From IMG/VR virus record IMGVR_UViG_3300042691_025170, positions 36,579 through 100,578 of that record: a DNA stretch of 64,000 nucleotides; one strand, written 5' to 3'. The stretch's first letter is position 1. The number at the start of each line of letters is the position of its first letter. Source of the stretch: a virus. The notes below the pieces were generated by a model. It saw nothing but the letters and a program-made list of their open reading frames with translations, searched no databases and was not told the origin of the DNA. Of the stretch, positions 12,938 through 61,079 are shown piece after piece. The translations under genes and the position numbers were made by a program.

Positions 12938-12951
12938 AGTATAATTGTAAA

Positions 12952-13467: not shown

Positions 13468-13469
13468 AA

Positions 13470-13709
13470 ATGACAGCAGAAGAATTTGTTATTTGGTTTA
13501 AAGGATTTGCACAAGCAGCAAATGCTTATAATATAACCCCAAAACAATGGGAGGATGTTAAAGATAAGTTAGAAACTGTTGAAGATACTAAAGAGTACGA
13601 CTTTGAAGATGAGGAAATTTATTATGATTATGCAACAGTGACTACACCTGACTGGTATGTTGACTTGACATCAGGTTCATTTGATATAAAATATTATAAT
13701 CATACTTGA
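13470..13709 (+). CDS. Hypothetical phage protein
   Basis: MTAEEFVIWFKGF..QW..VKDKL, a common small phage protein pattern. Confidence 0.55.
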   Translation: MTAEEFVIWFKGFAQAANAYNITPKQWEDVKDKLETVEDTKEYDFEDEEIYYDYATVTTPDWYVDLTSGSFDIKYYNHT

Positions 13710-13710
13710 T

Positions 13711-15197: not shown

Positions 15198-15205
15198 TAC
15201 AAGAT

Positions 15206-15856: not shown

Positions 15857-15863
15857 TTAAAGT

Positions 15864-18992: not shown

Positions 18993-19651
18993 AAGTAGCT
19001 TTATTACTAACCGGATTGCCAAGAAAAGTGCAAGAGGGATATGAATATTATTGGAAGCATGTGATAAATTCATATGATACAGATGTATATCTACATTTTT
19101 GGAAAGACGAAGAATATGAAAAAGTATTGGATGTTTATAATCCAGTTAGCTTTATACAACAAAAACCATTTGTATTTACCAATCACAGATTAGGTGTGGA
19201 GTCACCGAATGATGATATGTCTAGACCCATTTCTAGTTATGATGTTGCTGGAAACTTTAGATGCTTACCAATGTTATATAGTTGGCAAATTGGTTACTCA
19301 TTAATTCAAGGTGAATACGATTGTGTGATAAGAAGTAGATATGATTTGGGATCAAACTATCCAATTAACATTAATAGTCTAAATCTTGAAAATGTTAATA
19401 TATCAAATCATCATTGGCCAGACTCACCCATAACCGATGACAATCTGTGTATAACAAACAAAATCAACTCAGATAAAATATTCTCCGATATATTTAATGA
19501 GTTTGTTTACCACATAAAAAAAACTGGTGTTATACATTTTGCTGAGAAAAATTTTATGGAAATTCTTCAAAGAAAAAATATGTATGAAAAAGTGAGAAAA
19601 TGTAATGAATTACCATTTACTCTACTTAGAGAAAATAAACTTTGGTATTAA
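18989..19651 (+). CDS. Putative glycosyltransferase-like protein
   Basis: MKVALLLTGLPR, DVYLHFW, YDCVIRSRYDL; inside glycan cluster. Confidence 0.55.
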   Translation: MKVALLLTGLPRKVQEGYEYYWKHVINSYDTDVYLHFWKDEEYEKVLDVYNPVSFIQQKPFVFTNHRLGVESPNDDMSRPISSYDVAGNFRCLPMLYSWQIGYSLIQGEYDCVIRSRYDLGSNYPININSLNLENVNISNHHWPDSPITDDNLCITNKINSDKIFSDIFNEFVYHIKKTGVIHFAEKNFMEILQRKNMYEKVRKCNELPFTLLRENKLWY

Positions 19652-19661
19652 AATTAATAGT

Positions 19662-20852: not shown

Positions 20853-21319
20853 TGTATTCTATATCTTTTAGAGAAATGGTGTTGGATGATTTACCAACAT
20901 TCTTAGAAATAAGAAATTTATCAAATCAGTACCTGCATAATAATAGTACTTTTTCCATAGACGAAGCAACTAAGTGGTTTAAAGAAACTCAGCCAAAATT
21001 TTTTGTCATAGAGATTGAAAATAAAATTGTTGGATATTTCAGAACATCTAATTGGGATACCAATAGTTTATATATTGGAGCAGACATACACCCCGATTTT
21101 AGAGATAAAGGTATAGGGTATCAATCATATCTTATGTTTATAGATTTTTTGAAGAAGAAATATTCTATAAATAAATTGAAATTAGAAGTACTATCTACTA
21201 ATAAAAGAGCTAAGCATTTATATGAAAAAATTGGCTTTAGTGTTATTGAAATAAAAAGAAATGACATATTTAGAGATGGTGAGTATATTGATAATTTTGT
21301 TATGGAGTTAAAAATTTAA
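20852..21319 (+). CDS. GNAT N-acetyltransferase (PseH-like)
   Basis: IHPDFRDKGIG, LEVLSTNKRAKHLYEKIGF. Confidence 0.85.
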   Translation: MYSISFREMVLDDLPTFLEIRNLSNQYLHNNSTFSIDEATKWFKETQPKFFVIEIENKIVGYFRTSNWDTNSLYIGADIHPDFRDKGIGYQSYLMFIDFLKKKYSINKLKLEVLSTNKRAKHLYEKIGFSVIEIKRNDIFRDGEYIDNFVMELKI

Positions 21320-21323
21320 GGTT

Positions 21324-22070
21324 ATGGTAATTGATTTGTTTTCCATATGTTATAATGAAGAGGTAATAATACCTTATTTTTTAAAGCACTACAAACAATT
21401 TGTTAATAACATAACTGTTTATAACAATGAATCCACGGACTCATCAGTTCAACTACTTGAAAACGCAGGCGTTAACATAATTAATTTTTCAACTAATAAT
21501 CAAACTAATGAAATGAAGTTAGTTGATATACGAAACAATTGTTGGAAAAATTCAAAAGCAGATTGGGTAATTGTATGTGACATAGATGAGTTTGTATATC
21601 ATCCCAACATATTGAACATACTTGAAAATACAAAAGCTACGCAAATATATCCAGAAGGATACGAGATGATGTCAGAAAACTTACCAACAACAGAAGGTCA
21701 GATATATAATGAAATCAAAATGGGATATTCTACTGACAATTTTGATACTAATATATACCCAGGTTGGAAAAACACTTATTCAAAAGGATGTGTTTTTAAG
21801 CCAAGTGAAATTGAACCTAATTTTGGACCGGGTTCACACTGGTGTTTTCCTCAAGGTAATTTTATACCGGAAAAAAATAGTGGAATAAAATTATTGCACT
21901 ACAAATACTTAAATAGGGAAATGTTGATTAAAAAATATGACTTATATAGATCAAGACATGGTGATTTTGATAAACAAAATGGATTAGGTAATTATCAAGA
22001 ATGGGGTGCTGAAGAAATAAATAAACAATTTGATAGTTGGCTACCTATATGTAAAAATGTTATAGACTAA
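21324..22070 (+). CDS. Glycosyltransferase GT2-like
   Basis: CYNEE..IPYFLKHY, STDSS, ADWVIVCDIDEF, LLHYKY. Confidence 0.8.
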   Translation: MVIDLFSICYNEEVIIPYFLKHYKQFVNNITVYNNESTDSSVQLLENAGVNIINFSTNNQTNEMKLVDIRNNCWKNSKADWVIVCDIDEFVYHPNILNILENTKATQIYPEGYEMMSENLPTTEGQIYNEIKMGYSTDNFDTNIYPGWKNTYSKGCVFKPSEIEPNFGPGSHWCFPQGNFIPEKNSGIKLLHYKYLNREMLIKKYDLYRSRHGDFDKQNGLGNYQEWGAEEINKQFDSWLPICKNVID

Positions 22071-22072
22071 AG

Positions 22073-23053
22073 ATGAAAAGAGCATTAATAACAGGTATAA
22101 ATGGACAGGATGGTTCTTATCTATCTAAATTTTTATTAGATAAAGGATATGAGGTACATGGTCTGTTGAAAAGAAATTCCATAGCTGAAAACCAAACAGC
22201 TAGAATAGATGATAGTACATTTTCAAAATTAAGTTTGCATTATGCTGACATGACGGATATAGCATCATTATTCAGAGTCATAAATAAAATAAAACCAGAT
22301 GAAATATACAATTTAGCTGCACAATCTCATGTTAGAATATCGTTTGACCAACCCATATATACTGCAAATGTTACTGCTATAGGAGTATTAAATTTACTAG
22401 AGGTAGTTAAAGAAGTGTGCCCTAAATCAAAGATATATCAAGCATCTTCTTCGGAAATGTTTGGTAATTCAATAGATGAAGATGGTTATCAAAGAGAAAC
22501 CACACCCATGAACCCAGTATCACCATATGGGTGCTCCAAAGTTTTTGCATACAACATATGTAGAAATTATAGAAATTCATATGGTATGTTTATAGCAAAT
22601 GGTATATTGTTCAATCACGAGTCTCCACTTAGAGGTACTAATTTTGTAACTAACAAAGTAGTAAAGGAAGCGGTAAAAATAAAATTGGGATTGTCTAACA
22701 AATTAGTTTTGGGTAATTTAGAAGCAGCTAGAGATTGGGGACACGCTAAAGACTATGTTGAAGCAATGTGGTTAATACTTCAACAAGATAAGTCAGATGA
22801 CTTTGTATGTGCGACCGGAATATCTCATACTGTTAGAGAATTATGTGAGTATGTATTTTCATCTTTAGGAATGGATTGGAAACAATATGTCATTAATGAT
22901 GAAAAATATTTTAGACCAGAAGAATTGGATGTATTAAAAGGTGATTGCACTAAGCTTAAAAATTTGGGATGGAGTCCACATTATACATTTGAATCTATGT
23001 TAGATGAAATGATTAAATATTGGCTTGATAAATACAATGAAGATAGGCATTAA
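22073..23053 (+). CDS. gmd: GDP-mannose 4,6-dehydratase
   Basis: ITGINGQDGSYL, YNLAAQSHV.ISF, QASSSE, SPYGCSK, FNHESP.RG, RDWGHA.DYV. Confidence 0.96.
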   Translation: MKRALITGINGQDGSYLSKFLLDKGYEVHGLLKRNSIAENQTARIDDSTFSKLSLHYADMTDIASLFRVINKIKPDEIYNLAAQSHVRISFDQPIYTANVTAIGVLNLLEVVKEVCPKSKIYQASSSEMFGNSIDEDGYQRETTPMNPVSPYGCSKVFAYNICRNYRNSYGMFIANGILFNHESPLRGTNFVTNKVVKEAVKIKLGLSNKLVLGNLEAARDWGHAKDYVEAMWLILQQDKSDDFVCATGISHTVRELCEYVFSSLGMDWKQYVINDEKYFRPEELDVLKGDCTKLKNLGWSPHYTFESMLDEMIKYWLDKYNEDRH

Positions 23054-23708
23054 TTTAGTTGGAGTATCTTATAATGATAAGAAACACGGAGGCAGATATA
23101 GAAATTATAGGGATGCTATAGATTCTTTTTTCGATAATATAGTTAATCCATTAAGAAATGATGGACATGAAGTGTATTTTTACATATTCAGCTATCATAA
23201 TAAAAAGCAACAAGATATTATAAATGACTACAATCCAGTTAAGTATAATTTTGTAGACCCTATTTATAATAAAATGGGTGGTGGTGATAGACTGGAAAAT
23301 GGAATGAAGATAATGTCTGTTATTTACATCAATAGTTTACAACAACTAATTGATGAAAATTTAGATTTGATAATATCAACAAGATTTGATATAAAATTTA
23401 TAAGAAATCCTTTTATTGATTACAAATTTGATTTTACAAAATGTAACTTTTTATGGAGAGAACCAGAATATGTAGATTTACCTTTAGTAAATGATACATT
23501 CATAGTCTTTCCACACTCAATGACAAGAAATCTAATAGATGCAATTACTACAATGGAATTTAACCCACCGATGGGTATAAATGTAGCTATGCATAATTTA
23601 TATTTACCAATGGTTAATCAAGTTGGTAGAGATAAAGTACAATGGGTTTGTGATGAATTTGTAGATACAATAAATAATAAACTATATACGTTAACTAGAC
23701 ATGAATAA
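23037..23708 (+). CDS. Putative glycosyltransferase-like protein (similar pattern to 18989..19651)
   Basis: MKIGINLVG, DLIISTRFDI, VNDTF. Confidence 0.5.
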   Translation: MKIGINLVGVSYNDKKHGGRYRNYRDAIDSFFDNIVNPLRNDGHEVYFYIFSYHNKKQQDIINDYNPVKYNFVDPIYNKMGGGDRLENGMKIMSVIYINSLQQLIDENLDLIISTRFDIKFIRNPFIDYKFDFTKCNFLWREPEYVDLPLVNDTFIVFPHSMTRNLIDAITTMEFNPPMGINVAMHNLYLPMVNQVGRDKVQWVCDEFVDTINNKLYTLTRHE

Positions 23709-24525
23709 AATATACTCCACAGCTTTTTTAATGGGTGGTTTGGGAAATCAGATGTTCCAAATAGCACATGCTACCGCACAGAGTTGGAAACATGGTGTTG
23801 ATACAATGTTTTACATGGACTCTGAAATACAATATCCGAGTTGGAAGCCGGTTATGTATGTTGATAACATCTTTAAAAAAATTCCATTTACAAATCAGAA
23901 AATAAATGCACATCGTGTGTATGAAGAATCTTGGAATACAGCAAACTTAAATTTTGTTTTTGACAAAACTATAGAGTTTTATGGTTATTTTCAGAGTAGT
24001 AAAAATTTTACAGGCTACGAAAGTAATGTTAAAGATTTATTTTACCCAGATGATAGTATCTATGAAAAACTATCTAAAAAATATCCACAAATAATGTATG
24101 AAAATACTTTATCTGTACATATCAGAAGAGCAGATTATTTCAATGTTAGTAATATACTACCTGTAGTTGACTTGACATATATAAATGAATGTATTAGACT
24201 GCATGGAAACTATGATTATATGTTCATATTTTCAGATGACAAAGATTGGGCAAGAAATGCTCTATCTTACGAGAATAGTGTAGTAGTCGATTCTTTAAAA
24301 ACTGAAGAAGAGATGTGGTTGATGTCAATGTGTAAACATAATGTAATATCCAATTCAACATTTTCTTGGTGGGGTTCTTATCTAAATAAGAACAACGATA
24401 AAAAAATATACGCACCAAGTATTTGGTTCGGCCCAGGTGGCCCGAGTGAGTATAGTAATGTGTATGAAACCTATTGGAATAAAATTGATGTCGTATATAA
24501 AGAAGGTAGATTGATTGTTGCATAA
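23701..24525 (+). CDS. GT11 alpha-1,2-fucosyl/colitosyltransferase
   Basis: GGLGNQMFQ, GYFQS, VHIRRADY, FSDD, NSTFSWWG. Confidence 0.92.
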   Translation: MNKIYSTAFLMGGLGNQMFQIAHATAQSWKHGVDTMFYMDSEIQYPSWKPVMYVDNIFKKIPFTNQKINAHRVYEESWNTANLNFVFDKTIEFYGYFQSSKNFTGYESNVKDLFYPDDSIYEKLSKKYPQIMYENTLSVHIRRADYFNVSNILPVVDLTYINECIRLHGNYDYMFIFSDDKDWARNALSYENSVVVDSLKTEEEMWLMSMCKHNVISNSTFSWWGSYLNKNNDKKIYAPSIWFGPGGPSEYSNVYETYWNKIDVVYKEGRLIVA

Positions 24526-24543
24526 TAACTTAAATAAATAAAG

Positions 24544-25701
24544 ATGATTAAACTTGTTTCAGATACTATAGATAGAGCTGATATAAACGCATTGATAGAA
24601 TGGTTATCTAAAGAAGAGATTCCAATTCTTACAAAGAATAAATTAACGGTTGAATTGGAAAAAAAATGGGCTGATAAAATTGGAACAAAATATTCAGTTT
24701 TTGTTAACTCAGGTTCATCTGCTATTTTATTAATGTTATTGTCTCTTAAGCAAGGTAATTTCTTAAGAAATAATAAAATAGTATGCCCAGCATTAAGTTG
24801 GGCAACGGATGTTAGTACACCAATAATACTTGGCTTTGATACTATACTATGTGATTGTAATCTAACCGATTTATCGTGTGACCTAACAGAACTTGAAAAA
24901 ATATTTAAGGAAGAAAACCCATCTTGTTTTATATCGGTAGCACCACTTGGTTTGGTTCCTGAAATGGAAAAATTAATTTCACTATGTGAAAAGTATAATG
25001 TTTTATTACTTGAGGATATTTGTGAATCTTTAGGATCTAAGTACAATGGTAAACATCTTGGGTCTTTTGGATTTGCTTCAGTATTTTCCACATATTTTGG
25101 CCACCATATTAGTACGATTGAAGGTGGGTTCATAAATACTAATGATGAGCAACTATATAATATGTTAGTAATGACTAGAAGTCACGGATGGGACAGAGAC
25201 TTGAATGAAACAAATAAAGAAGAACTTAGAAAAAAGTATAATGTATCACGTTTTGATGCGTTGTATACATTTTATGTACCAGGTTTGAATCTCAGATCAA
25301 CAGACTTGCAAGCTTTCATAGGTCTTAGGTCATTAGACAAAATAGACAAATTCTCTAATATAAGAAATACTAATTTTAAATTGTATAAGTCAAAAATAAA
25401 AAATAACAATTTAGACTTACAAGTTCAAAACGATTCATTTGTATCTAATTTTGCATATCCAATTGTTTCTGAAAAGAGAGACGTAATTGTAAATGAATTG
25501 ATAAAAAATGGTGTTGAAGTAAGACCTTTAATTGCTGGAAATATGGCTAATAAACCTTTTTGGTATGAAAGATATGATAGAAAAGAATTTAAAAATGCTA
25601 ACGTCATTGACAGATATGGGTTCTATGTTCCAAATCATCAGGACATGACCAATGAAGATATAGAGTATATTTGTAAAATAATAAATTTACAATATGAATA
25701 A
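24544..25701 (+). CDS. colD: ColD-like GDP-4-keto-6-deoxymannose 3-dehydratase (DegT family, His-type)
   Basis: NSGSSA, PALSWAT, EDICESLG, STYFGHHISTIEGG with His at the PLP-Lys position, RSHGW.R, RPLIAGN. Confidence 0.75.
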   Translation: MIKLVSDTIDRADINALIEWLSKEEIPILTKNKLTVELEKKWADKIGTKYSVFVNSGSSAILLMLLSLKQGNFLRNNKIVCPALSWATDVSTPIILGFDTILCDCNLTDLSCDLTELEKIFKEENPSCFISVAPLGLVPEMEKLISLCEKYNVLLLEDICESLGSKYNGKHLGSFGFASVFSTYFGHHISTIEGGFINTNDEQLYNMLVMTRSHGWDRDLNETNKEELRKKYNVSRFDALYTFYVPGLNLRSTDLQAFIGLRSLDKIDKFSNIRNTNFKLYKSKIKNNNLDLQVQNDSFVSNFAYPIVSEKRDVIVNELIKNGVEVRPLIAGNMANKPFWYERYDRKEFKNANVIDRYGFYVPNHQDMTNEDIEYICKIINLQYE

Positions 25702-26455
25702 ATTGGTAACAATATATGTCGTAACTTATAACGAAGAGGCCATGATTGAATTTTTTATCAATCATTACAGAAAAAATTTTCCCGATTGTACAATAAATGT
25801 ATATGACAATTTTTCAACAGATAGAACAAGAGAAATAGCAGAATCAATGGGGTGTGTAGTTCACACTTTTGAAACAGATGGATTTGATGACTCAGCTAAT
25901 GTTGCGTTGAAAAAAGAGAAATGGAAAACCGCAACTACTGATTGGGTGATTGTTTGTGATTGTGATGAGTTGATAGAAATAAATCAAAATGATTTACTCT
26001 TAGAATCTGAATTGGGGTACGAAATCATACTGTTCGAAGGTTACACTCTTATGAACAATAAGACAAAAGAGGTTGATTTAAATAACTTAAAGTATGGGTT
26101 TAGAGATTATTCGTATGACAAATACTATTTGTTTAATAGAAATAAAATAATAGATATAGGATATAATTATGGTTGTCACAGATCCAACAATAATGCACCG
26201 GTTGCTATATCCGGTAATCCAAAAATAGGTTCTTCAAAAGTTTATAAAGCTTATCATTACAAGTATCTTAGTTTAGATTATTGTATAGAAAGAAGAAGAA
26301 TGTTTGCTAAAAGAGTATCTAACTTTAATAAGCAAAGAGGATTTACATTGGAATACCAAAAAACAGAAGAAGAATTAGTATCGGATAAATCCATGGAACA
26401 CTTGAGTTTAAAAAAAATATTCAACGAAACACAACTAATAAAAATAATACAATAA
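25694..26455 (+). CDS. Glycosyltransferase GT2-like (paralog of 21324..22070)
   Basis: TYNEE.MIEFFINHY, DNFSTDRT, TDWVIVCDCDE, YHYKY. Confidence 0.8.
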   Translation: MNKLVTIYVVTYNEEAMIEFFINHYRKNFPDCTINVYDNFSTDRTREIAESMGCVVHTFETDGFDDSANVALKKEKWKTATTDWVIVCDCDELIEINQNDLLLESELGYEIILFEGYTLMNNKTKEVDLNNLKYGFRDYSYDKYYLFNRNKIIDIGYNYGCHRSNNNAPVAISGNPKIGSSKVYKAYHYKYLSLDYCIERRRMFAKRVSNFNKQRGFTLEYQKTEEELVSDKSMEHLSLKKIFNETQLIKIIQ

Positions 26456-27216
26456 TGAAAAACAGAACATCAATATCAGACTACGACAGATACAAAACTG
26501 TTTGTAAAAATGCTTATGAAAATGAAGAAAGTTTTCGTATATTTAAACAAAATTTAGATTACAAAGTAATACTAGAGCATGTGTCATTTGAACAAGGAGA
26601 TAGATTTATAGATAGAACATTAGAGAATAATAACATAAATTATGATTATATAAATAAATTTAAAGAAAATGATATTTACGGAACGCCAGATTTGTTTACA
26701 TACAGACATCCGTTTGGTTTGATATCTCCGTCCACTTTAAGGTATGTCAAAGTACTTAGTGATTTGATAAAATTTTTTGGAAGTTTAGATAATATGTCAA
26801 TAGTAGAAATAGGAGTTGGATATGGTGGTCAGGCAAAAATTATTATGGACTACTTTAATATAAAGGAATATAACTTCATAGATTTGCCGGAAGTTTGTTC
26901 ATTGACTAAAAAATATTTATCAAAATTTAATTACTCAAATTGTAATTTCTTAGATTTTGAAAATCTTCCGGATAGAAAGTATGATTTGGTAATATCAAAT
27001 TATGCAATAACAGAGTGTACTATGGAAATTCAAAATCTTTATATAGATAAGGTTCTTAAAAATTCTACAAAAGGATATATGATTGGTAACAAAATTTCTC
27101 ATCTGTTCAATATAAATAGTTATAGTAAAGAAGATTGGCAGCAAATTATGCCAAATATAACAATACATGAAGAAGTACCAGCTACAGCGGAAGGTAATTA
27201 TTTAATGATTTTTTAA
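26455..27216 (+). CDS. Putative sugar O-methyltransferase
   Basis: SPSTLRY, IVEIGVGYGGQ, IDLPEV, DLVISNYAITEC. Confidence 0.85.
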   Translation: MKNRTSISDYDRYKTVCKNAYENEESFRIFKQNLDYKVILEHVSFEQGDRFIDRTLENNNINYDYINKFKENDIYGTPDLFTYRHPFGLISPSTLRYVKVLSDLIKFFGSLDNMSIVEIGVGYGGQAKIIMDYFNIKEYNFIDLPEVCSLTKKYLSKFNYSNCNFLDFENLPDRKYDLVISNYAITECTMEIQNLYIDKVLKNSTKGYMIGNKISHLFNINSYSKEDWQQIMPNITIHEEVPATAEGNYLMIF

Positions 27217-27224
27217 ATTTATAT

Positions 27225-27998
27225 ATGAGTAAGTTATTAAGTTGTTATTTGTGGGCGTTTAAAAATTACAAAGCGGGTATTAAGTCTGTTAGCACAGTTA
27301 GAAAATTTTATCCAAATGCAGATGTATTTATAAATGTTGATTTTGAGGGTGATTTCGATAACTACACAAGAGAAGGAAATGAAATAAATGCAGTAGTTAC
27401 AAAGAATAATTTTCAACTTGGTTATTGCGGAGACTTCAATAGTATTTATGGTAAAGTTACAGTTGGTAGAGAATGTTGGCCAAGAGAATATACTTTTGAA
27501 TGGTTAAGAGGTGTATATGATGCCTGTCTAAAAACAGATTCCAAATATATCCTTTTACTCGAAGAAGACGATTATGTACTGAAACCAGTTTCAATTTTAC
27601 AAACAGAGTTTTCTATCGCAATACATCCCACAGACCCATCTCCAATTGGAGTTAGAAGAGCTAACTATATACCAAATGAATTTATTATTTATTCATATGA
27701 GCATGGTGGTGTAGCTACATCACCTGGATATGCAGCCGGTGGTGGTACTATTTTTAATAGAGAGCACTTTGTAAAAGCTTGGGAAAAGTCTAAAGATGCT
27801 TTGTGGAAAGACTATGATTATCTTAAGCAAGTAAACAAAATAATAGGTTGGCAAGATTTTGTTTTTCAATTCGTGTTTATGATGGGCGGATATGATGTCA
27901 TACAGAATCATAATCTTTGCGAAGAGTGGGAAGTTAAAGATTGGAAAAATTTTGAAATAGTAACCGGTTTGAAAGACCATACCCTTGTAGAATTATGA
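27225..27998 (+). CDS. Putative GT-A glycosyltransferase
   Basis: VRKFYP, LLLEEDD, GGGTIF. Confidence 0.6.
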   Translation: MSKLLSCYLWAFKNYKAGIKSVSTVRKFYPNADVFINVDFEGDFDNYTREGNEINAVVTKNNFQLGYCGDFNSIYGKVTVGRECWPREYTFEWLRGVYDACLKTDSKYILLLEEDDYVLKPVSILQTEFSIAIHPTDPSPIGVRRANYIPNEFIIYSYEHGGVATSPGYAAGGGTIFNREHFVKAWEKSKDALWKDYDYLKQVNKIIGWQDFVFQFVFMMGGYDVIQNHNLCEEWEVKDWKNFEIVTGLKDHTLVEL

Positions 27999-28846
27999 AA
28001 GATGTATTAATTGGATGTATAACAAACTATACTTTTGATAAAGTAAAATACTTTGTAAACTCAATAGATAGGAGTGGATTTACGGGTTATAAAGTAATGA
28101 TTGTATATAATGTACCATTCGAAACAGTTGATGAGTTGCAGAAAAGAAATTGGATAGTAATAGCTTTTAATAAAGATGATGACAAAAAATGGTATACATA
28201 CAAAAGTGATTTCAGAATAATGTGTGATAGACAATTGCATTACCATCAAACATTAGAACAACTCAATAAACAATTTGGAGACTTACGGTATGTGATGGCA
28301 ATAGATCCAAAAGATGTTGTCTTTCAATACAATCCATCCGAATGGTTGGAAAAAAATATGGGTGACAAAAAAATAAATGTTGGATGTGAAAGTCTGAGAT
28401 ATAAAGACGAACCTTGGGGAAAAAATAATCTAACAGAAAGTTTTGGAGAATATGTCTATGATAGATGCAAAGACAATTTAATATTCAATTGTGGTACTGT
28501 AGCTGGTAATTGGAAAACTATGAGTGAATTGTTTCTAAACATATATTTGATGTGTATAGGTAGTCCAAACCAAACACCAGACCAAGCCGCTTTAAATGTT
28601 TTATTATCAATGGACATATATAGGAATATCACTAGATTTACGATGTCAGAAGAAGCGTGGGCTTGTCAAGCTGGTACTACAATAGATGAAAAAGTTCTGA
28701 AGACAAGCAAGGATAAATTAGTCGAACCTCAACCATATTTGGAGGGTGATATAGTTAAAACGAGTAAAGGTATAATATACGCATTAGTTCATCAGTATGA
28801 CAGAATACCTACTTGGAAAGATATAATTGAAAAAAAATATTCTTAA
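27995..28846 (+). CDS. Putative glycosyltransferase
   Basis: IDPKDVVFQYNP, FNCGTVAG, DQAALN, VHQYDR. Confidence 0.65.
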   Translation: MKDVLIGCITNYTFDKVKYFVNSIDRSGFTGYKVMIVYNVPFETVDELQKRNWIVIAFNKDDDKKWYTYKSDFRIMCDRQLHYHQTLEQLNKQFGDLRYVMAIDPKDVVFQYNPSEWLEKNMGDKKINVGCESLRYKDEPWGKNNLTESFGEYVYDRCKDNLIFNCGTVAGNWKTMSELFLNIYLMCIGSPNQTPDQAALNVLLSMDIYRNITRFTMSEEAWACQAGTTIDEKVLKTSKDKLVEPQPYLEGDIVKTSKGIIYALVHQYDRIPTWKDIIEKKYS

Positions 28847-28847
28847 A

Positions 28848-29339
28848 ATGATAGTTGGAAAAGGAGACATAGCATCTGTACTAAATGATAGGTATGATAT
28901 CATATTTTTTGCATCAGGTGTATCAAACAGTTCTGAAACAAGAGATAGTGAATTTCAAAAAGAAATAGATTTACTATTAAAGCAAGACAAAAGTAAGTGT
29001 GTATATTACTTTAGTTCGATAGCATTAGATATTTCAGATAAGGTAGTAAATAGATATTATTTACACAAGCTTCAAATGGAAGCATTGATAAAATCTAACT
29101 TTGAAAATTATGTGATAATAAGAATAGGGAATATAAATTGGGGTAAAAATCCAAATACATTTCTGAATGCTATGAGAAATAAAATCATGAATAACGAACC
29201 GGTTCACATAGTTGACGAGTACAGATATATTATAAACAAAGAGCAGTTATTATTGATGACAGATAACCTACCATCAAAAGGTCAGCATCAAATATCTGTC
29301 TTTGGTAGAATGGCTAAAGTAAGAGATTTATTAAAATGA
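28848..29339 (+). CDS. Short NAD-dependent epimerase-like protein
   Basis: MIVGKGDIA, FASGVSNS, YFSS, YYLHKLQME. Confidence 0.7.
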   Translation: MIVGKGDIASVLNDRYDIIFFASGVSNSSETRDSEFQKEIDLLLKQDKSKCVYYFSSIALDISDKVVNRYYLHKLQMEALIKSNFENYVIIRIGNINWGKNPNTFLNAMRNKIMNNEPVHIVDEYRYIINKEQLLLMTDNLPSKGQHQISVFGRMAKVRDLLK

Positions 29340-30238
29340 AAGGGTTAATTAGTATATTCGTAATGCCTCAAGAATTAGAGGATTTAGCACAAACACTTGA
29401 TAGATTAAAAAGAAACGCAGCGTTTTTAGATGACTCGGTTAAGTTTAAAATAGACATAACGATGTGTTTATCAGATGAACTGACGGATTGGAATAAATCA
29501 AGACTACCTAAAGAATACATAAAAGAAAGAACAGAAGAATTAGTTGAAAAATATACTGATTGGTGTTCTGAAAGATGTTTAGAATTTGAGATAAATGATA
29601 AAACATTGGGATGTGTATCACAAAGAAGAAAGAGTTGGAAAGAAAATCCAAATGTAGATTTTTTCATTTGGTTGGATACGGATATGTTTTTTAAAGATGT
29701 AACTCTTTACTATTTAGTAGATGCTTTCAAGAGGGTTAAAAATGGTGGTTATGATATGTGTGTTGTAACTCCAGAATTTGTTAAACAATGGGACAACACA
29801 TGGGATGTAATAGTCAATAAAAAGTATCATTATGCACCTCTTGATTACTACAAAACAGTAGATATAGAAAAAGAATCCTTATCAAACAATTCCGAGATAT
29901 CAATAATAGAAATACCAACATTCAAATTTGCAGGAGGATGGTTTACACTTATATCAAAACCATTATTGGACAAGATAGGCGTTCCTGAATCATTTGGACA
30001 CTATGGTTTAGAGGATACTTTTGTAATGGTATGTGCTAATATAATGAAACAATCGGGTAAATTAGTTTCACAATTTGTTTTAGAAAATATCATAGCCGGA
30101 GAAATTCATAAGAATAGAACTAACAGAACAATCAAATCTTTCATTAGTTCTATTGACCGAAAAGATGAATTTAAACAAATAGCACACCAAAATTGGGAAA
30201 AAGAGGTTAAAAGTTTTATAGATTCAATAAAAGTTTGA
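29336..30238 (+). CDS. Putative GT-A glycosyltransferase
   Basis: WLDTD (DxD), FKFAGGWF, HYGLEDT. Confidence 0.65.
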   Translation: MKGLISIFVMPQELEDLAQTLDRLKRNAAFLDDSVKFKIDITMCLSDELTDWNKSRLPKEYIKERTEELVEKYTDWCSERCLEFEINDKTLGCVSQRRKSWKENPNVDFFIWLDTDMFFKDVTLYYLVDAFKRVKNGGYDMCVVTPEFVKQWDNTWDVIVNKKYHYAPLDYYKTVDIEKESLSNNSEISIIEIPTFKFAGGWFTLISKPLLDKIGVPESFGHYGLEDTFVMVCANIMKQSGKLVSQFVLENIIAGEIHKNRTNRTIKSFISSIDRKDEFKQIAHQNWEKEVKSFIDSIKV

Positions 30239-42013: not shown

Positions 42014-42706
42014 ATGTTAAATATAAATATACCAGTTACAGAAGCCTTCATCCGTGGTGAGTTCCTACGAGGTCACACCGATTCGTTTGATAAGCGTTTT
42101 CCGTGTTACATATTCGGAATGGCATCCATACCGGGCCAAGCACCACTATTTCATTTCATAATGGAAGACGGCGGACTTTGGTGGCGTATGCCGATTCATG
42201 CGTTTTGCCATCGTGAGGATGCGCCGGTTCAAGAGTTAGACGAATTGGTACTTTGGGACTCGTTTAGTTATCATCCCACCGCCACTTGTTTTTCTATATT
42301 AAAGAACAAACGGTGTGAGTTTGTGTCTCGCCGGCGAGTGACTTATTCGGGCCGTTATCTATTCACTTTGGATTGGTCGGCATCGGATGATGGTTCACAT
42401 ACCGACTACGGCCTAAGTGAGTTTCCCTCACAACACAAATGTGGTCATGTGATAGCAATGGATAACGGTAATTTTGCCATCCAACCGAATAATCGTCTAC
42501 GCATTCACGACCCGTCATTCACTGTAAAGGAAGACCTCGTGATACACCGAAAATACAACACGACACTTTGGACGGCCGAGCGTAATTCTCGCTGGGTTAC
42601 ACCCGATACTGATGTTATGAATTACGACCATACCGATTTGGGTAATGGTGAGAGTAATGCGGCACGTTCGGCAGAATATAATAAGAAAGATGCGGCTGGT
42701 ATTTGA
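42014..42706 (+). CDS. Hypothetical phage protein
   Basis: 230 aa; WRMPIHAF, YLFTLDW, HKCGH, GNFAIQPNNR. Confidence 0.65.
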   Translation: MLNINIPVTEAFIRGEFLRGHTDSFDKRFPCYIFGMASIPGQAPLFHFIMEDGGLWWRMPIHAFCHREDAPVQELDELVLWDSFSYHPTATCFSILKNKRCEFVSRRRVTYSGRYLFTLDWSASDDGSHTDYGLSEFPSQHKCGHVIAMDNGNFAIQPNNRLRIHDPSFTVKEDLVIHRKYNTTLWTAERNSRWVTPDTDVMNYDHTDLGNGESNAARSAEYNKKDAAGI

Positions 42707-43253
42707 CCACAAACATGGTAGATACGATAACGAAAACAATCTACCTCTAATTTATGTAGAGTGTGTGCGTGAGAACGAGACGACACGAGAATTATTTGAA
42801 ACGGGGTGGTTGCCATGGGGTGACCGATGGTATCAAACTCGTTCCGCAAGATTACGTTCGGGCCGTATTTCAAGTCGGCGTAAAAAGGAATTGTCCGCTA
42901 TTACCATCAAAGAAGGACTTAGCGATACGGAAAATGCCGAATGGGTAAAGAGGTTTGGATTGACGACCGGTTGGGCCGCATATGAAAAATACGGAGTACC
43001 CTATACATTTAGTTTTGATGACCGATTTTGGGGTCTTGCTAAAATCTATGACGACCAATTTTTATACTGCCTTATGTCAACTGACCAATATCCCGAATCA
43101 TATGGCACACTCTCTTATTACTATTTAATGAATAAGTTTGGTGGGGATTTTGAGTATTTATATATAACTGATTATTATGATGAATTTAAGTACAAATCTC
43201 AGCTTTTTGGCTTTGAATATTGGACAGGATTTGAGTGGGTTAAGAAACAATAG
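42690..43253 (+). CDS. Putative aminoacyl-tRNA-protein transferase (ATE1/Bpt-like)
   Basis: LFETGW..W..RSARL N-part; C-part SYGTLSY...YLYITDYY...YKSQLFGFEYW..FEW resembles the ATE_C signature SxGTxS...YxYxGY...YK..F...E...W. Confidence 0.55.
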   Translation: MRLVFDHKHGRYDNENNLPLIYVECVRENETTRELFETGWLPWGDRWYQTRSARLRSGRISSRRKKELSAITIKEGLSDTENAEWVKRFGLTTGWAAYEKYGVPYTFSFDDRFWGLAKIYDDQFLYCLMSTDQYPESYGTLSYYYLMNKFGGDFEYLYITDYYDEFKYKSQLFGFEYWTGFEWVKKQ

Positions 43254-43261
43254 TTTACTAT

Positions 43262-43975
43262 ATGAAAATAAAGTTACCAGAAGGAGTAGGAATTTGTATA
43301 CAAGGCCCAACCGACTTTACCGATATTTGTTACTTTTGGAATGGGTTTGATTGTCCGGTGGTTTGGTCTACTTGGGAAACCGAACCTGCTAAGAACATTC
43401 TTAAAATTGAAAGGTCAGGTATAGAAGTGATATTATCACCGAAACCGAATTACAGCGGATACCTTAATTTCAATATGCAGTCGACTTCTACTCGGGTCGG
43501 ATTGACTCGTCTGAAAGAATTGGGAGTCAATCATGCTGTAAAAGTCAGAAGCGATATGATATTTTCGGGAATAGAAACCGTTTGGCAAGAGATAGTCGGT
43601 TGTGATATATCTTTTATGCATTCTTACAATCCTAAGTATTGCCCTGAATTGGCTTATTGCTTGGATGGAATATATCATGTTGGGTTGGACTTTACATTAG
43701 ACCATATCGTGTTTGGAAATATAGATACTATGTTATACGTGTTTGGTGGACATGAACATTGGAATAGACCAATACCACCGGAGTCTATTATATTGAAACG
43801 ATGGTTAGACTATCGCAATTTGGTTCATGATTTTCGTCCTGAGTATCTGAAGCAAAACGGATTGGTTTACTTTGGCCCTATCGCTATGAAACACTCTAAA
43901 CAAGTATTGTGGTTGAAAAACAATTGGGACTTTACAGGTATTATGCACAACGAACCAAATCAAAGAATTTATTAA
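43262..43975 (+). CDS. WavE-like lipopolysaccharide synthesis protein
   Basis: IQGP, VWSTWE, NFNMQSTST..GL, AVKVRSD, DHIVFGN. Confidence 0.65.
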   Translation: MKIKLPEGVGICIQGPTDFTDICYFWNGFDCPVVWSTWETEPAKNILKIERSGIEVILSPKPNYSGYLNFNMQSTSTRVGLTRLKELGVNHAVKVRSDMIFSGIETVWQEIVGCDISFMHSYNPKYCPELAYCLDGIYHVGLDFTLDHIVFGNIDTMLYVFGGHEHWNRPIPPESIILKRWLDYRNLVHDFRPEYLKQNGLVYFGPIAMKHSKQVLWLKNNWDFTGIMHNEPNQRIY

Positions 43976-48550: not shown

Positions 48551-48624
48551 GGGGGTATAGCTCAGCTGGCTAGAGCATCTGCTTTGCAAGCAGAGGGTCA
48601 TCGGTTCGAATCCGTTTACCTCCA
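48551..48624 (+). tRNA. tRNA-Ala(UGC)
   Basis: GGGGGTA/TACCTCC acceptor with G3:U70, loop TTTGCAA, GGTTCGAATCC; CCA not encoded. Confidence 0.95.
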
Positions 48625-48628
48625 CAAT

Positions 48629-48702
48629 GGTCTCATAGCTCAATTGGATAGAGCAATTGCCTTCTAAGCAATAGGTTTCGTGTTCGAGTCACGATGGGAC
48701 TA
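48629..48702 (+). tRNA. tRNA-Arg(UCU)
   Basis: GGTCTCA/TGGGACT acceptor, ATTGC-CTTCTAA-GCAAT anticodon arm, GTTCGAGTC. Confidence 0.93.
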
Positions 48703-48707
48703 CTGAT

Positions 48708-48739
48708 TTTGTAATATCAAAAAAAAAGTCGTATATTTG
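48708..48739 (+). promoter_or_regulatory. Bacteroidota-type promoter
   Basis: TTTG-N20-TATATTTG upstream of tRNA-Ile(UAU). Confidence 0.75.
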
Positions 48740-48748
48740 TAATATCAT

Positions 48749-48822
48749 AGTCCGGTGGCGCAATTGGTTGGCGCAGGATGCTTATACCATCAAGGATGTT
48801 GGTTCAAGTCCAACCCGGACTA
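48749..48822 (+). tRNA. tRNA-Ile(UAU)
   Basis: AGTCCGG/CCGGACT acceptor, GCGC D-stem, GATG-CTTATAC-CATC anticodon arm, GTTGG-TTCAAGT-CCAAC T-arm. Confidence 0.85.
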
Positions 48823-48825
48823 CAA

Positions 48826-48992
48826 TGAGAGGCAGACGAAAGCTCAGGCGTAAGTAAGGGATGCATACTCTTACGGCGGCAAGTAGACACACGAAGAGCG
48901 TAATTAACTCTTCCCTCATTTTGCTAACCGGGCAATAGTACGATGCAGGCTCATCCCGGCGGGATACAAGGTGACGGTCAGGAAAGACTGAC
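48826..48992 (+). ncRNA. Candidate structured RNA(s) of unknown family
   Basis: GC-richer non-coding spacer with stems GTAAGGG/CTCTTAC, GAAGAG/CTCTTC, TGAG/CTCA, CCGGG/CCCGG, GTCAG/CTGAC. Confidence 0.5.
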
Positions 48993-48997
48993 AACAT

Positions 48998-49075
48998 AGT
49001 CAGGAGCGTAATGAGGCGTGGCTAGCCAAATCCCTAAAGGGTTGCACATTGCAGGTTCAAATCCTGTCCTGACTA
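48998..49075 (+). ncRNA. tRNA-like element with non-canonical anticodon arm
   Basis: Perfect AGTCAGG/CCTGACT acceptor plus A, T-arm GCAGG-TTCAAAT-CCTGT; no canonical 5 bp/7 nt anticodon arm. Confidence 0.7.
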
Positions 49076-49088
49076 CAAAATAAAAACT

Positions 49089-49571
49089 ATGAAAACAAAT
49101 GTAAGAAACACTATTTTTTTTGAACTGAAAATCATAAAAGAATATTGGCAGATAACTTCTATACTTGCAACTATTATATTTTTCTGCGTTTACTTTTGGC
49201 TACAAAGTAAGGAAGCAAATGAAAGAGTTGAAGAATTGAGTATTACTAACAAAGAACTAAAAGACAGAATAAGTCGTTTGGAAGGACAAGTGGATGTAAT
49301 CAATAGTAATATGGTTTTATTTGTGGAAAGAAATCCAGGTCTGACAACATATCGTTTGGAAATGTTGGAAGAAGCAATGGATGTTCAACAGGTTTTGAAT
49401 AGTCTTAATAGGAGAAACGAAACCGAAATTAAAATAGTTCAAATACCTACACCTGTGCCGGTATTTAATCCATCTCTCACACCGCCAACATATAATCCGA
49501 CTCAAATTCAAAGGTCAGATTCAAAAGTAAGTGTTCCGCAAAAGAAAAAGAGTTTGTTTAAAAATAATTAA
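49089..49571 (+). CDS. Single-TM coiled-coil protein
   Basis: TM segment, heptads, Pro-rich tail. Confidence 0.6.
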   Translation: MKTNVRNTIFFELKIIKEYWQITSILATIIFFCVYFWLQSKEANERVEELSITNKELKDRISRLEGQVDVINSNMVLFVERNPGLTTYRLEMLEEAMDVQQVLNSLNRRNETEIKIVQIPTPVPVFNPSLTPPTYNPTQIQRSDSKVSVPQKKKSLFKNN

Positions 49572-49591
49572 ATTTGTATATTGTAGAATAA

Positions 49592-49665
49592 GGGCCCTTA
49601 GCTCATTCGGTTAGAGCAAATGACTCATAATCATTAGGTGGTTGGTTCGATCCCAACAGGGCCCA
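49592..49665 (+). tRNA. tRNA with CAU anticodon, most likely Ile2 (lysidine type)
   Basis: GGGCCCT/AGGGCCC acceptor and GACTCATAATC arm resemble bacterial tRNA-Ile2 rather than elongator Met. Confidence 0.85.
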
Positions 49666-49671
49666 CAAAAA

Positions 49672-49756
49672 GGAGAGGTGGCAGAGCGGTTGAACGCGGC
49701 GGTCTTGAAAACCGTTTTACTGAAAAGTAACGGGGGTTCGAATCCCTCCCTCTCCG
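49672..49756 (+). tRNA. tRNA-Ser(UGA)
   Basis: GGAGAGG/CCTCTCC acceptor, G discriminator, CTTGAAA loop, long variable arm. Confidence 0.95.
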
Positions 49757-49791
49757 CATTTTTTTCTTTTTCTTATATTTAATCATAAATT

Positions 49792-49983
49792 ATGGAGTAT
49801 AAGTGGAAAGGAATAAATCTATATTCAGAAGAAAATAATAAAAAGATTAGTCGGATTATTCAAATAGAATGGAAAATAACTGAAGCAATCCGAAACGGAC
49901 ACAAATCGTATTGGGGAGACCAATTTAGAGAAGAAAGAAATGAAATGTTACAATTAAGAAAAGAGATACTAGGAGAAAAATAA
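49792..49983 (+). CDS. Hypothetical protein
   Basis: 63-aa ORF between tRNAs. Confidence 0.5.
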   Translation: MEYKWKGINLYSEENNKKISRIIQIEWKITEAIRNGHKSYWGDQFREERNEMLQLRKEILGEK

Positions 49984-49987
49984 ATAA

Positions 49988-50069
49988 GCCCATATGGCGT
50001 AATTGGTAGCCGCGCTAGACTTAGGATCTAGTGAAGTGATTCGTGGGGGTTCGAGTCCCTCTATGGGCA
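49988..50069 (+). tRNA. tRNA-Leu(UAG)
   Basis: GCCCATA/TATGGGC acceptor, CTAGA-CTTAGGA-TCTAG arm, long variable arm. Confidence 0.95.
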
Positions 50070-50123
50070 CATTTAGAAATTAAAAAACATATATTTATAT
50101 TTGTAAACATTAAACAATTAGTT

Positions 50124-50633
50124 ATGACAGAATTTTCATTTTTTGTAATGGGTGTTATAGGAACACTACTTACATCTACAATAGTTAGTATGATAGATTT
50201 TAAATTAACTCTCAATAATTTGAAGAGGTCTTTGACTGACATAAAATCGGTCAGAGAAAAACGAGAGGAATTACTTGATAAAAAAATAGATTCGGAAAAA
50301 GAAAACTTGATTAAGTTTTTGAAATCAAATGTAGAACATCTAAATTCCAATTTGGAAGTTTTGCAAAAAAGACAAAGTGAAACTTTTGAAAAATTAAATA
50401 CTGATTCTATAAATGGTTTTGATAAGATACATAATAGAACTACATTTGAAGTTGATAAATTATGGAATAGAATCACGGATGAAGTTAATGTATTAAGAAA
50501 TCAAATTGCTTCTAGACAAATTCAAAACTATGATGACTCTCATATTATTAATAAAATGTCAGAGTTGGAAAAAAAATTAGATTATTTTATAACATTAGTT
50601 TCTAATATTGATTCGAAAAAGACTAGAAAGTAG
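50124..50633 (+). CDS. Single-TM coiled-coil protein
   Basis: ATG 50124 after TATATTTG; the longer start overlaps tRNA-Leu. Confidence 0.6.
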   Translation: MTEFSFFVMGVIGTLLTSTIVSMIDFKLTLNNLKRSLTDIKSVREKREELLDKKIDSEKENLIKFLKSNVEHLNSNLEVLQKRQSETFEKLNTDSINGFDKIHNRTTFEVDKLWNRITDEVNVLRNQIASRQIQNYDDSHIINKMSELEKKLDYFITLVSNIDSKKTRK

Positions 50634-50634
50634 T

Positions 50635-50666
50635 TTTGTAAAAGTCAAAAATAATACTTATATTTG
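50635..50666 (+). promoter_or_regulatory. Bacteroidota-type promoter of tmRNA
   Basis: TTTG-N20-TATATTTG. Confidence 0.75.
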
Positions 50667-50684
50667 TAATGTTCTTTGAAATAT

Positions 50685-51080
50685 GGGGGTGAATAGAATT
50701 GATTGGTAACATAGTTCATTTCCTGCAAGTGGTGTTAGATGGAAACACTTAAATCCTCTATCAACAAACAAACGGAGAGCAAATCTCTACCTTCACCTTC
50801 GCAGATGCTATGGCATTTGTAGGTGCAGAAGAATACGCACTAGCTGCCTAGTCTTATCCCGTATCACTCATGGGATGTGTCAAAAAGAAGTGAGCCAGTT
50901 TTCTTGGTAGTCACAAAACCAAGTGGTGGATCCCGGATTTCCGGAGCCCAGTATGGCGTAGTAGCCAAGTCTAACTACTACCACCGTCATTCCGAAGCGG
51001 TGTGAGAATTTCGGAATAAACTTGTGAGTGAAGGAATGGGTTAGTTAAACAAGACGGGAGTGCGAATCTCCCCACCTCCA
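50685..51080 (+). ncRNA. ssrA: tmRNA
   Basis: GGGGGTG/CACCTCC-A acceptor with G3:U, T-arm GGGAG-TGCGAAT-CTCCC, internal tag ORF 50774..50851 GEQISTFTFADAMAFVGAEEYALAA-stop. Confidence 0.93.
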
Positions 51081-51089
51081 CTAAAAATA

Positions 51090-51121
51090 TTTGTAAACTT
51101 GTAAAAGTTTTCATATATTTG
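51090..51121 (+). promoter_or_regulatory. Bacteroidota-type promoter of tRNA-fMet
   Basis: TTTG-N20-TATATTTG. Confidence 0.75.
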
Positions 51122-51128
51122 TATAAAT

Positions 51129-51200
51129 CGCGGGATAGAGCAGTGGTAGCTCACTTGGCTCATAACCAAAAAGTCGTAGGTTCGAATCCTACTCCCGCTA
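51129..51200 (+). tRNA. Initiator tRNA-fMet(CAU)
   Basis: CGCGGGA/TCCCGCT with C1:U72 mismatch, CTCATAA loop, GGTTCGAATCC. Confidence 0.9.
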
Positions 51201-51224
51201 CGAAAGATGTTATTTGAAATAAAC

Positions 51225-59682: not shown

Positions 59683-60280
59683 ATGATATACATTATAATA
59701 GCATTTTTTATTTGGATGGCTTATGAAATTTGGAGAGCGCCGATAATAAGAGAAATCGGAGATGACCAATATAAAATTGTTCGTAAAGAAAAAAAGTTTG
59801 GTGATATATTTAAATTTAAAAAATAACTTATGGAAGCATTGTATATTATTGGAATAATTCTCATCATCTCAGGTTTCATATCATGGGCATGGGTACAAGG
59901 TATAGACCGAGCAATGAGAGACTTTCCGGATTATAAAGGTGAAGACCTATTTGATGAAGTTCCCAAAAAGAAAGAACAATGGGATGACAACAAACAACAT
60001 ACAGAACAAAACTTTAAGATATGATTTCTATTTTAGGTAAATTAGCATTGACACTTATATTAGTGTCTGTTTTGATAGCATTTGTATATGCTTTTATTAA
60101 AGAAACAATTGATAATTATAAAAACAAAAAACCAAAGTTATGAACGTATTTGATATATTTTTACAATACCTTTTTGGTGGAATGTTGATTACAACTGTAC
60201 TGATGTTGGTATATGCTGTAATCAAGGAATTAATTAGTGATTTTATATATTATAGAGACAAGTACTTTAACAAAAAATAA
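59683..60280 (+). other. Four tandem tiny single-TM ORFs (59683..59826, 59830..60024, 60021..60143, 60140..60280)
   Basis: Each begins with a hydrophobic helix; starts and stops abut or overlap. Confidence 0.55.
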
Positions 60281-60281
60281 T

Positions 60282-60803
60282 ATGGTAGGTAAGGTAATAT
60301 TCATTGATATTGACGGCCCCCTTGCATGGGGAACTTGGACTGATGGTTCGGTAAAAATCACGGAGGGAACTCAACAAGAATTTACCATACCATATTCTTG
60401 GGTTAAAGAAGATTGTGATGCACTTGCTGAGATTATCAAACGGACTAATGCAAATCTTGTGGTGTCATCTGATTGGAAAAAGCACTATGGTATATTCCAA
60501 CTCAAAAGAATATTTGAGCATTACGAGATTGGTGGGTGGTCTGTATTAGACACGACTACACATTTCAATCCTGTTAGAAAGCTTAGTTCACCTCCTGAGT
60601 GGGACAGAGCCTGTGAGATTAAGACATGGGTTAAATCGTTCCGACCAAAACATTGGATTACGATTGATGATATGCCACTCAATATTTCCTTCAAACGATT
60701 GGGTATTCCACAATGGAGGCATGTTCAAGTTGATGGTGACTTTGGAATGGGTGGCAGACTCCGCGACAAAATTGAAGAGTGTGTTAATAAACTAAACAGA
60801 TAA
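60282..60803 (+). CDS. HAD domain protein (Swiss-Army-knife RNA-repair type)
   Basis: FIDIDGPL, VVSSDWK, RACEIKTW, IDDM. Confidence 0.75.
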   Translation: MVGKVIFIDIDGPLAWGTWTDGSVKITEGTQQEFTIPYSWVKEDCDALAEIIKRTNANLVVSSDWKKHYGIFQLKRIFEHYEIGGWSVLDTTTHFNPVRKLSSPPEWDRACEIKTWVKSFRPKHWITIDDMPLNISFKRLGIPQWRHVQVDGDFGMGGRLRDKIEECVNKLNR

Positions 60804-60806: not shown

Positions 60807-61079
60807 ATGACACAAGTAGTAGAACAGATTGATGTTGACCAACTTTTAGAAAATGTGCTTGAAAAGCAGATTATAGTTTACAATGATAATGTAAACACTT
60901 TTGATTGGGTTATACTTTCGTTTATGGAAGTTTTAGAGCATACCTTACATCAGGCTGAACAATGTGCTATGATTATTCATAACAGAGGAAAGTGTAGTGT
61001 AAAAGTTGGTAACCAAGATGAACTGAAACCATATCGTGACGCACTGACTGAACGAGGTATCAACGCAAAAATTGAATAA
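60807..61079 (+). CDS. clpS: ATP-dependent Clp protease adaptor ClpS
   Basis: IIVYNDNVNTFDWVI..HT..QAEQCAMIIHNRGKCSVK.G. Confidence 0.9.
   Translation: MTQVVEQIDVDQLLENVLEKQIIVYNDNVNTFDWVILSFMEVLEHTLHQAEQCAMIIHNRGKCSVKVGNQDELKPYRDALTERGINAKIE

Follow-up and report, generated by a model that had tools for sequence, protein, structure and literature searches.

The 64,000-nucleotide stretch analysed here (the window; positions 36,579 to 100,578 of IMG/VR virus record IMGVR_UViG_3300042691_025170) encodes a small protein, here called T, and directly upstream of it a partner gene, c1, whose 3′ end overlaps the start of T (coordinates are given in Table 1). T is a remote and minimal relative of the aminoacyl-tRNA-protein transferases ATE1 and Bpt, an affinity first proposed for it in an initial annotation made from the DNA letters, and its kind is, in the databases sampled, almost entirely viral. 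The open reading frame (ORF) that holds T spans 42645..43253 on the plus strand; because the start shared by all homologues corresponds to the ATG at 42690, with the common N-terminal pattern M-K/R-L/I-x-F-D/N-H, the product is taken to be 187 amino acids (aa), which agrees with the length of about 187 aa given originally. Most of the motifs listed at that stage were recovered exactly (G39-W40, R51-S-A-R-L55, S137-Y-G-T-L-S142, Y156-L-Y158, and Y168-K-S170), but the C-terminal "E.W..W" was misread, and the motif is E176-x-W178-x-G180-x-x-W183.

Relatives of T are encoded at at least 207 IMG/VR loci, and 40 cluster representatives matched T at E ≤ 1e-3 in a search of the full library. Although overall identity is as low as 23–59%, R54 and the catalytic K169 did not vary in any of 80 copies; the residue preceding the catalytic lysine was Tyr in 69 copies and Phe in 11, and this position 168, along with H7 and the GFE-W-G-W motif at the C-terminus, was strongly conserved across divergent copies. 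Conservation is thus far beyond chance, and the T gene is real and under selection.

Kinship of T with ATE1 and Bpt

Profile comparisons used a broad alignment of 32 T-family sequences (A2) and a profile of seven close relatives (A1), together with a set of 19 Bpt ORFs from genuine bacterial bpt genes, found by a degenerate DNA pattern. All 19 of these controls matched both ATE_N (PF04376) and ATE_C (PF04377), with ATE1 structures matched at 1e-25 to 1e-32. Aligned to the Bpt set by hhalign, A2 scored 97.5% (E = 6.5e-12) over 181 columns, pairing T residues 22–187 with Bpt residues 27–235 and covering both the ATE_N and ATE_C regions, including the N-lobe (T 22–70 against Bpt 27–85). The five best matches of A2 in the PDB were all ATE1 chains (E = 5e-4 to 2e-3), and significance against Bpt and ATE1 was reached only with this broad alignment. 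The short subfamily to which T belongs (A1) and a long subfamily (A5) aligned to one another over their full length (hhalign 99.5%, E = 8e-23).

Among the 32 full-length relatives, 10 matched ATE_C at E ≤ 1 (best 2.2e-8), and four of the 10 long forms exceeded its gathering score of 25 bits (29.6–35.2 bits); T fell short of that score and had no Pfam match at E ≤ 1. ATE_N was matched by 0/32 T-family members, against 19/19 of the Bpt controls; Acetyltransf_6 was matched by one T relative, and no Pfam match to FemABX/MprF or Aat (PF03588) was found for T. The automatic IMG pipeline labels some of the long forms arginyltransferase. Because T has no Pfam match of its own, and the evidence comes from its relatives and the family-level hhalign result, it is on these sequence grounds a remote homologue of ATE1/Bpt rather than a member by Pfam threshold. 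In the comparison with the two Pfam profiles that the initial annotation had proposed, relatives of T match ATE_C, four of them above the cut-off, but neither T alone nor, for ATE_N, any of the 32 family members gave a match.

An AlphaFold2 model of T built on A2 (mean predicted local distance difference test score [pLDDT] 92.6, predicted template modelling score 0.86) has a bilobed fold, composed of an N-lobe and a GNAT C-lobe. In Foldseek the model was matched best by ATE1 of human, yeast, and K. lactis, with VipF, L/F-transferase, FemX, and Sbb17 next. By VIA-align, human ATE1 (8tzv_A) aligned with 183 of the 187 residues (Z = 11.2, root-mean-square deviation 4.2 Å), and KlAte1 aligned across model residues 1–187 (Z = 9.3–9.6), whereas alignments to generic GNATs, MprF, and FemX were confined to about residues 47–180. 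Proteins of the FemX/MprF/Sbb17 type reached Z = 7.7–8.4 over the C-lobe only (about residues 38–180), and L/F-transferase (Aat) reached Z of about 8.0 over 156–158 residues, below ATE1. The modelled T is thus a GNAT-type bilobed fold reduced to about 187 residues. Taken together, the alignment to Bpt, the PDB profile matches, ATE_C in relatives, and the model support the initial assignment as a minimal ATE1/Bpt-like transferase, with both profile and structural matches to tRNA-dependent GNAT-fold transferases.

Functional residues were mapped onto T from HMMER alignments to KlAte1, from hhalign to Bpt, and from the mutagenesis of Kim et al. 2022 (PMC9351520); KlAte1 chain numbering equals the untagged numbering plus 4. 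Kept in T are the catalytic pair Tyr303-Lys304 of the M-x-Y-K motif (T Y168-K169), Tyr87 of the acceptor pocket (Y48), the Arg of the I-R motif (R54; Arg102 in KlAte1, a number derived from the chain alignment and not from the paper), the Ser-x-Gly core motif (S137-G139), and the basic helix alpha-3 (Lys112...), which binds the tRNA acceptor stem (R63-R64-K65-K66). The metal site is lost. For this four-Cys Zn or Fe-S site, C23, C26, C95, and C96 of KlAte1 were compared; KlAte1 Cys95/Cys96 and Bpt C61, C64, and C67 are all missing from T, in which an 8-residue deletion after Y48 removes the loop with Bpt C61 and C64, while Bpt C67 aligns to T50 and Bpt C17 lies N-terminal to the aligned region. 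The two Cys of T (C25 and C127) are not conserved and no Cys column is invariant across the 32 relatives, so that the reported absence of a Cys cluster holds.

Also lost are Tyr173/His178 of KlAte1 (Bpt Y113/H118), which contact the tRNA 3′ end and correspond to F89/G94 in T; this Y..RH segment is variable or deleted among the short forms, with the basic helix R63-K66 retained. The first Arg of GFRRSG, Arg80 in KlAte1, binds the acceptor through its acidic N-terminal residue, and the R80E enzyme is dead (PMC9351520); its counterpart is Leu41 of GWLPWG in T and Leu, Ile, Val, or Gln in 80/80 copies, never a basic residue. The donor side-chain pocket is changed from Ser255/Ser273/Glu277/Tyr289 in KlAte1 to Y126/S142/L146/L157, the corresponding Bpt residues being Ala/Ala/Gln/Leu, and the pocket of T is uncharged. 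The description of T as stripped-down was therefore apt, the CxxC..C loop having been deleted, and the suggestion of altered specificity fits the map, in which Leu41 stands in place of the Arg for acidic N-termini and Leu146 in place of the Glu that binds arginine.

The c1 partner, subfamilies, and genomic setting

The c1 protein is 55–81% identical among relatives, far more conserved than T. Among short-form IMG/VR loci, c1 was directly 5′ of T and overlapped it in 38/47 (39/48 including the window), the overlap measuring 17–56 nucleotides (nt) in each of these 38 relatives; this overlap suggests co-transcription and translational coupling. Viewed from c1, T followed immediately 3′ at 58 of 76 testable IMG/VR c1 loci. 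In relatives, the gene order is SSB-UvsX-exonuclease-DnaB-[c1-T]-ribonucleotide reductase. The c1 protein occurs in 114 records of cultured cyanophages, pelagiphages, and Flavobacterium phages; GenBank calls it "PurM/phosphoribosylaminoimidazole synthetase", whereas RefSeq and its PHROG family call it "ferredoxin"; no match in Pfam or NCBIfam supported PurM or ferredoxin, and both labels look wrong. Six residues are invariant (C31, H47, H62, H141, C143, and H145), and c1 is predicted to be all-beta; its AlphaFold2 model had a pLDDT of 58 and a best fold match of Z = 3.6, a c1 profile found nothing in the PDB, and ESM Atlas matches were viral hypothetical proteins only (0.81). The N-terminus of c1 was considered as a substrate of T and is an unlikely one, the window c1 starting MLNIN and its relatives MSYLN, with an in-frame stop directly upstream. 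In c1 loci without T (L131:3686-5620), the gene after c1 encodes a small Cys-rich protein, by eye similar to an HNH or endonuclease VII-type nuclease, and next comes a 437-aa ORF, by eye similar to ATP-dependent DNA ligases; the slot after c1 is thus variable.

Across the 80 copies, the residue at the Glu277 site split cleanly by partner gene. Long forms (about 220–247 aa) with a conserved 65–66-aa ORF (cluster c5) downstream had Glu in 27/27, and short forms with c1 upstream had Phe (22), Leu (16), or Met (1), accounting for 39/39. The c5 ORF followed the Glu-pocket long forms without exception (L069:6666-6863 and 26 other loci), and a 148-aa ORF (c22) often precedes these, its end sharing 4 nt with the start of the transferase; Pfam matched neither c5 nor c22 and was uninformative on the long-form context. 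A quick maximum-likelihood tree, midpoint-rooted and with long branches, and hence to be read with caution, resolved Bpt and the clades linked to c5 and to c1 as separate groups (98% support by the approximate likelihood ratio test SH-aLRT), placed T within the c1-linked clade on a long branch, and limited the loss of c1 to one nested subclade; to judge from these sequences, the c1–T pairing is ancestral in its clade.

In the databases sampled, relatives of T were almost all viral or metagenomic without an assigned origin. No match was found in cultured phages by tblastn with T and a long form, in plasmids with a long form, or to the region by megablast. Fused forms of T were not found at 434–2000 aa or in the near range, which is weak evidence as that search depends on a word index. 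In the ESM Atlas, a mostly Bacteroidota bacterial cluster of 249-aa "GNAT" proteins with Acetyltransf_6 and ATE_C matched T (0.91), and this cluster may represent a cellular cousin of the viral T family.

The source record is a 100.6-kb IMG/VR virus with an estimated completeness of 53%, a G+C content of about 33%, and genes all on the same strand; it is an uncultured freshwater T4-like phage. Near-identical DNA is present in freshwater and aquatic metagenomes from about 12 studies, and the nearest cultured relative of its DNA polymerase is that of Microcystis phage Mel-JY01 (48% identity). A large glycan island (window 10287-30238), with glycosyltransferases and two aminotransferases recognised by PHROG matches, adjoins the polymerase. 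Just upstream of the T/c1 locus are genes for ThyX and a non-specific endonuclease (Pfam). Immediately 3′ of T, a 237-aa ORF (window 43262-43975) has a weak match to WavE (lipopolysaccharide synthesis, E = 0.005); it adjoins T in 0/79 related loci with a T gene.

Table 1. Coordinates of the principal features in the window.
Feature	Position	Strand	Remarks
T4-type family B DNA polymerase	3431-6055		
c1	42014..42706	+	230 aa; PHROG 3704; highly conserved
c1/T overlap	42690..42706	+	17 nt; T start codon inside the c1 3′ end
T, minimal ATE1/Bpt-like aminoacyl-tRNA transferase homologue	42690..43253	+	187 aa; key residues H7, G39-W40, Y48, S52, R54, basic helix R63-K66, S137-G139, L146, Y158, Y168-K169, W178/G180/W183
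tRNA cluster	48551..51201	+	Seven: Ala, Arg-TCT, Ile-TAT, Met, Ser, Leu-TAG, Met
Transfer-messenger RNA (tmRNA)	50685-51083		Rfam 59.5 bits (gathering score 47); not reported by ARAGORN
ClpS adaptor	60807..61079	+	Pfam ClpS, E 1.9e-15, 56.8 bits; 17.5 kb downstream of T

The tRNAs and tmRNA of the window are possible sources of aminoacyl donors for T. The ClpS adaptor was considered as an obligate partner of T and rejected, as the two genes occur independently among relatives: of the records with T or c1, only 3/32 also had ClpS, and no complete genome with T did, while T was present in 0/8 records with a relative of the window ClpS, two complete genomes among them. ClpS was also found in two long-form phages. 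Compared by eye with the E. coli sequence, the window ClpS pocket appears to have N-D-N-V-N-T-F in place of N34-D35-D36-Y-T38-P-M40, and if that comparison holds, the N-degron specificity of the adaptor would be altered. Directly 5′ of ClpS is a protein with a HAD_SAK_2 domain, a "Swiss Army Knife" RNA repair HAD domain (window 60237-60803, E = 8e-17). Phage-encoded ClpS has been noted before (Iyer et al. 2021, PMC7824862).

Interpretation of the T–c1 pair

That T is homologous to ATE1/Bpt and that its chemistry is tRNA-dependent is, in our judgement, very likely. From the fold, the pattern of kept and lost residues, and the linkage to c1, we further infer, with more reserve, that T is probably an active transferase that depends on aminoacyl-tRNA, uses a non-basic donor and a non-acidic acceptor, and is co-expressed with c1. 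In such an enzyme, the basic helix R63-R64-K65-K66 would bind the acceptor end of the aminoacyl-tRNA, and Y168-K169, together with R54, would stabilise aminoacyl transfer to the amino group of the acceptor. Because the pocket formed by Y126, S142, L146, and L157 is uncharged, the donor, by analogy with the characterised enzymes, is probably a non-basic and likely hydrophobic amino acid rather than arginine. Because the Arg that binds acidic N-termini is replaced by Leu41, the acceptor, if it is a protein N-terminus, would not be Asp or Glu, and with the loss of the residue that picks out acidic protein ends the target of T is probably new; our best guess is the alpha-amine of a protein or peptide with a new N-terminal specificity, and host ClpS may be used with that specificity. 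T would be co-expressed with c1 among nucleotide-metabolism genes (ThyX and the non-specific endonuclease) in the window, and within a module of replication and nucleotide metabolism in relatives. A more far-reaching version, to which we give only tentative credence, makes T a branch within a broad and almost wholly viral radiation of miniature ATE/Bpt-like proteins, each subfamily tuned to its own partner, and makes T with c1 a form of tRNA-dependent aminoacylation undescribed for viruses, which would tag non-acidic N-termini with a hydrophobic residue, creating a new N-degron specificity, or would modify a non-protein acceptor in the nucleotide-metabolism module.

Several results weigh against an active, c1-coupled transferase of this kind. 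T alone had no meaningful match in Pfam (E ≤ 1), PHROGs, NCBIfam, or PDB sequences, and the A1 profile found nothing in the PDB and reached only a non-significant 19% against Bpt; a profile of the N-terminal 85 residues did not find ATE1 in the PDB, so the homology of the N-lobe is carried by hhalign and by structure. Because the Tyr173/His178 segment is not conserved (F89/G94), tRNA binding may be weaker or different. The donor prediction is drawn from one analogy, that of Glu in ATE1 and Gln in Bpt. Finally, c1 occurs without T in all the cultured cyanophages and pelagiphages and in 18 of the 76 testable IMG/VR c1 loci; those cultured phages indicate that c1 does not need T, and the pairing may therefore reflect synteny rather than function.

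Three other explanations were weighed. Loss of the metal site, of the His178/Tyr173 segment, and of Arg80 in so small a protein would also fit a non-catalytic relic that binds tRNA or c1, for example as a decoy or chaperone, without carrying out transfer, but this is very improbable given the invariance of the catalytic Lys and R54, the strong conservation of Tyr/Phe168, H7, and the GFE-W-G-W motif, and a pocket residue that differs by subfamily, a pattern suggestive of selection for substrate choice. A canonical N-degron writer would tag N-terminal Asp/Glu as Bpt does, with phage ClpS passing the products to host ClpAP, so that T, ClpS, tmRNA, and the tRNAs would make up one "mark and destroy" kit. 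The genome does carry ClpS, tmRNA, tRNA-Leu, and tRNA-Arg, two long-form phages also have ClpS, and the characterised ATE1/Bpt enzymes all feed N-degron pathways (PMC9351520); nevertheless, with the essential Arg80 replaced in all 80 copies and ClpS not linked to T, either by distance (17.5 kb) or by co-occurrence among the records counted above, the canonical Bpt–ClpS pathway is unlikely, and we rate its chances as slim.

A two-component tailoring system, in which T and c1 would act on a non-protein acceptor such as a small molecule, a nucleotide, a lipid, or a precursor of the cell wall, in the manner of enzymes of the FemX, MprF, and Sbb17 type, is a less remote prospect than either of these, although still an unlikely one. 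It would account for the tight and ancestral coupling of c1 to T through overlapping reading frames, the perfect covariation of the donor-pocket residue with partner type, the neighbouring ThyX and nuclease genes (DnaB and ribonucleotide reductase in relatives), and the loss of the Arg that reads protein N-termini, and the core fold of MprF, FemX, and Sbb17/Sba18 matches T. However, the acceptor-binding N-lobe was aligned only by ATE1, the best match, and more weakly by L/F-transferase, both enzymes of protein N-termini; the sequence homology is to ATE_C and not to FemAB or DUF2156; and c1 works without T in cultured phages. A tRNA-dependent transferase with changed donor and acceptor preferences remains the reading that we favour.

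Comparison with known transferases

Bpt (the Asp/Glu leucyltransferase, ATE_N plus ATE_C) is homologous to T over both lobes. The two have in common the Gly of GF/GW, Y48, R54, Ser-x-Gly, Y158, Tyr-Lys, and the C-terminal Trp (T numbering), as well as an uncharged donor pocket, in which Leu157 of T occupies the position of Bpt Leu201, and both are small, single-domain proteins. T is about 50 residues shorter, lacks the CxxC..C loop and any conserved Cys, has Leu-Pro in place of the RR of GFRRSG, has lost the Y..RH tRNA segment, has no ATE_N or ATE_C match of its own, and is paired with c1. ATE1 (8TZV, 7WFX/7WG1, 7TIF, 8E3S) is the best whole-length structural match and shares with T the Tyr303-Lys304 pair, Tyr87, Ser273, and the basic helix; unlike T, it is a protein of about 500 aa with large insertions, a C-terminal domain, and a Cys4 Zn/Fe-S site, and at the positions of Leu41 and Leu146 in T it carries, respectively, Arg80, which serves acidic N-termini, and Glu277, which serves arginine. 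The long-form viral subfamily keeps the ATE1 Glu, whereas T does not. Aat (LFTR; 2CXA, 2DPT) resembles T as a small, bilobed, GNAT-type aminoacyl-tRNA protein transferase, and its donor is hydrophobic; however, it has no detectable sequence relationship to T, a lower structural score than ATE1, and other motifs. Enzymes of the FemX/MprF/Sbb17 type resemble T in their GNAT catalytic core and in having the Lys of the Tyr/Phe-Lys motif; they differ from it by their two full GNAT domains or membrane parts, and sequence searches gave no match to them.

To our knowledge, non-ribosomal enzymes that transfer amino acids from tRNA to protein are few, namely ATE1, Bpt, and Aat, and all of them feed regulated protein degradation. 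A search of the accessible literature found no description of a phage-encoded ATE/Bpt-like enzyme, only phage ClpS being noted (PMC7824862). If active, T would offer a minimal scaffold on which to study how tRNA is hijacked, might serve as a tool for labelling protein N-termini, and would represent a new phage route to rewriting host or phage proteins, and the widespread, misannotated c1 is a candidate functional partner worth characterising. Set beside its cellular counterparts, the T family would be the smallest ATE1/Bpt fold known, without a metal cofactor and with its specificity residues swapped by subfamily.

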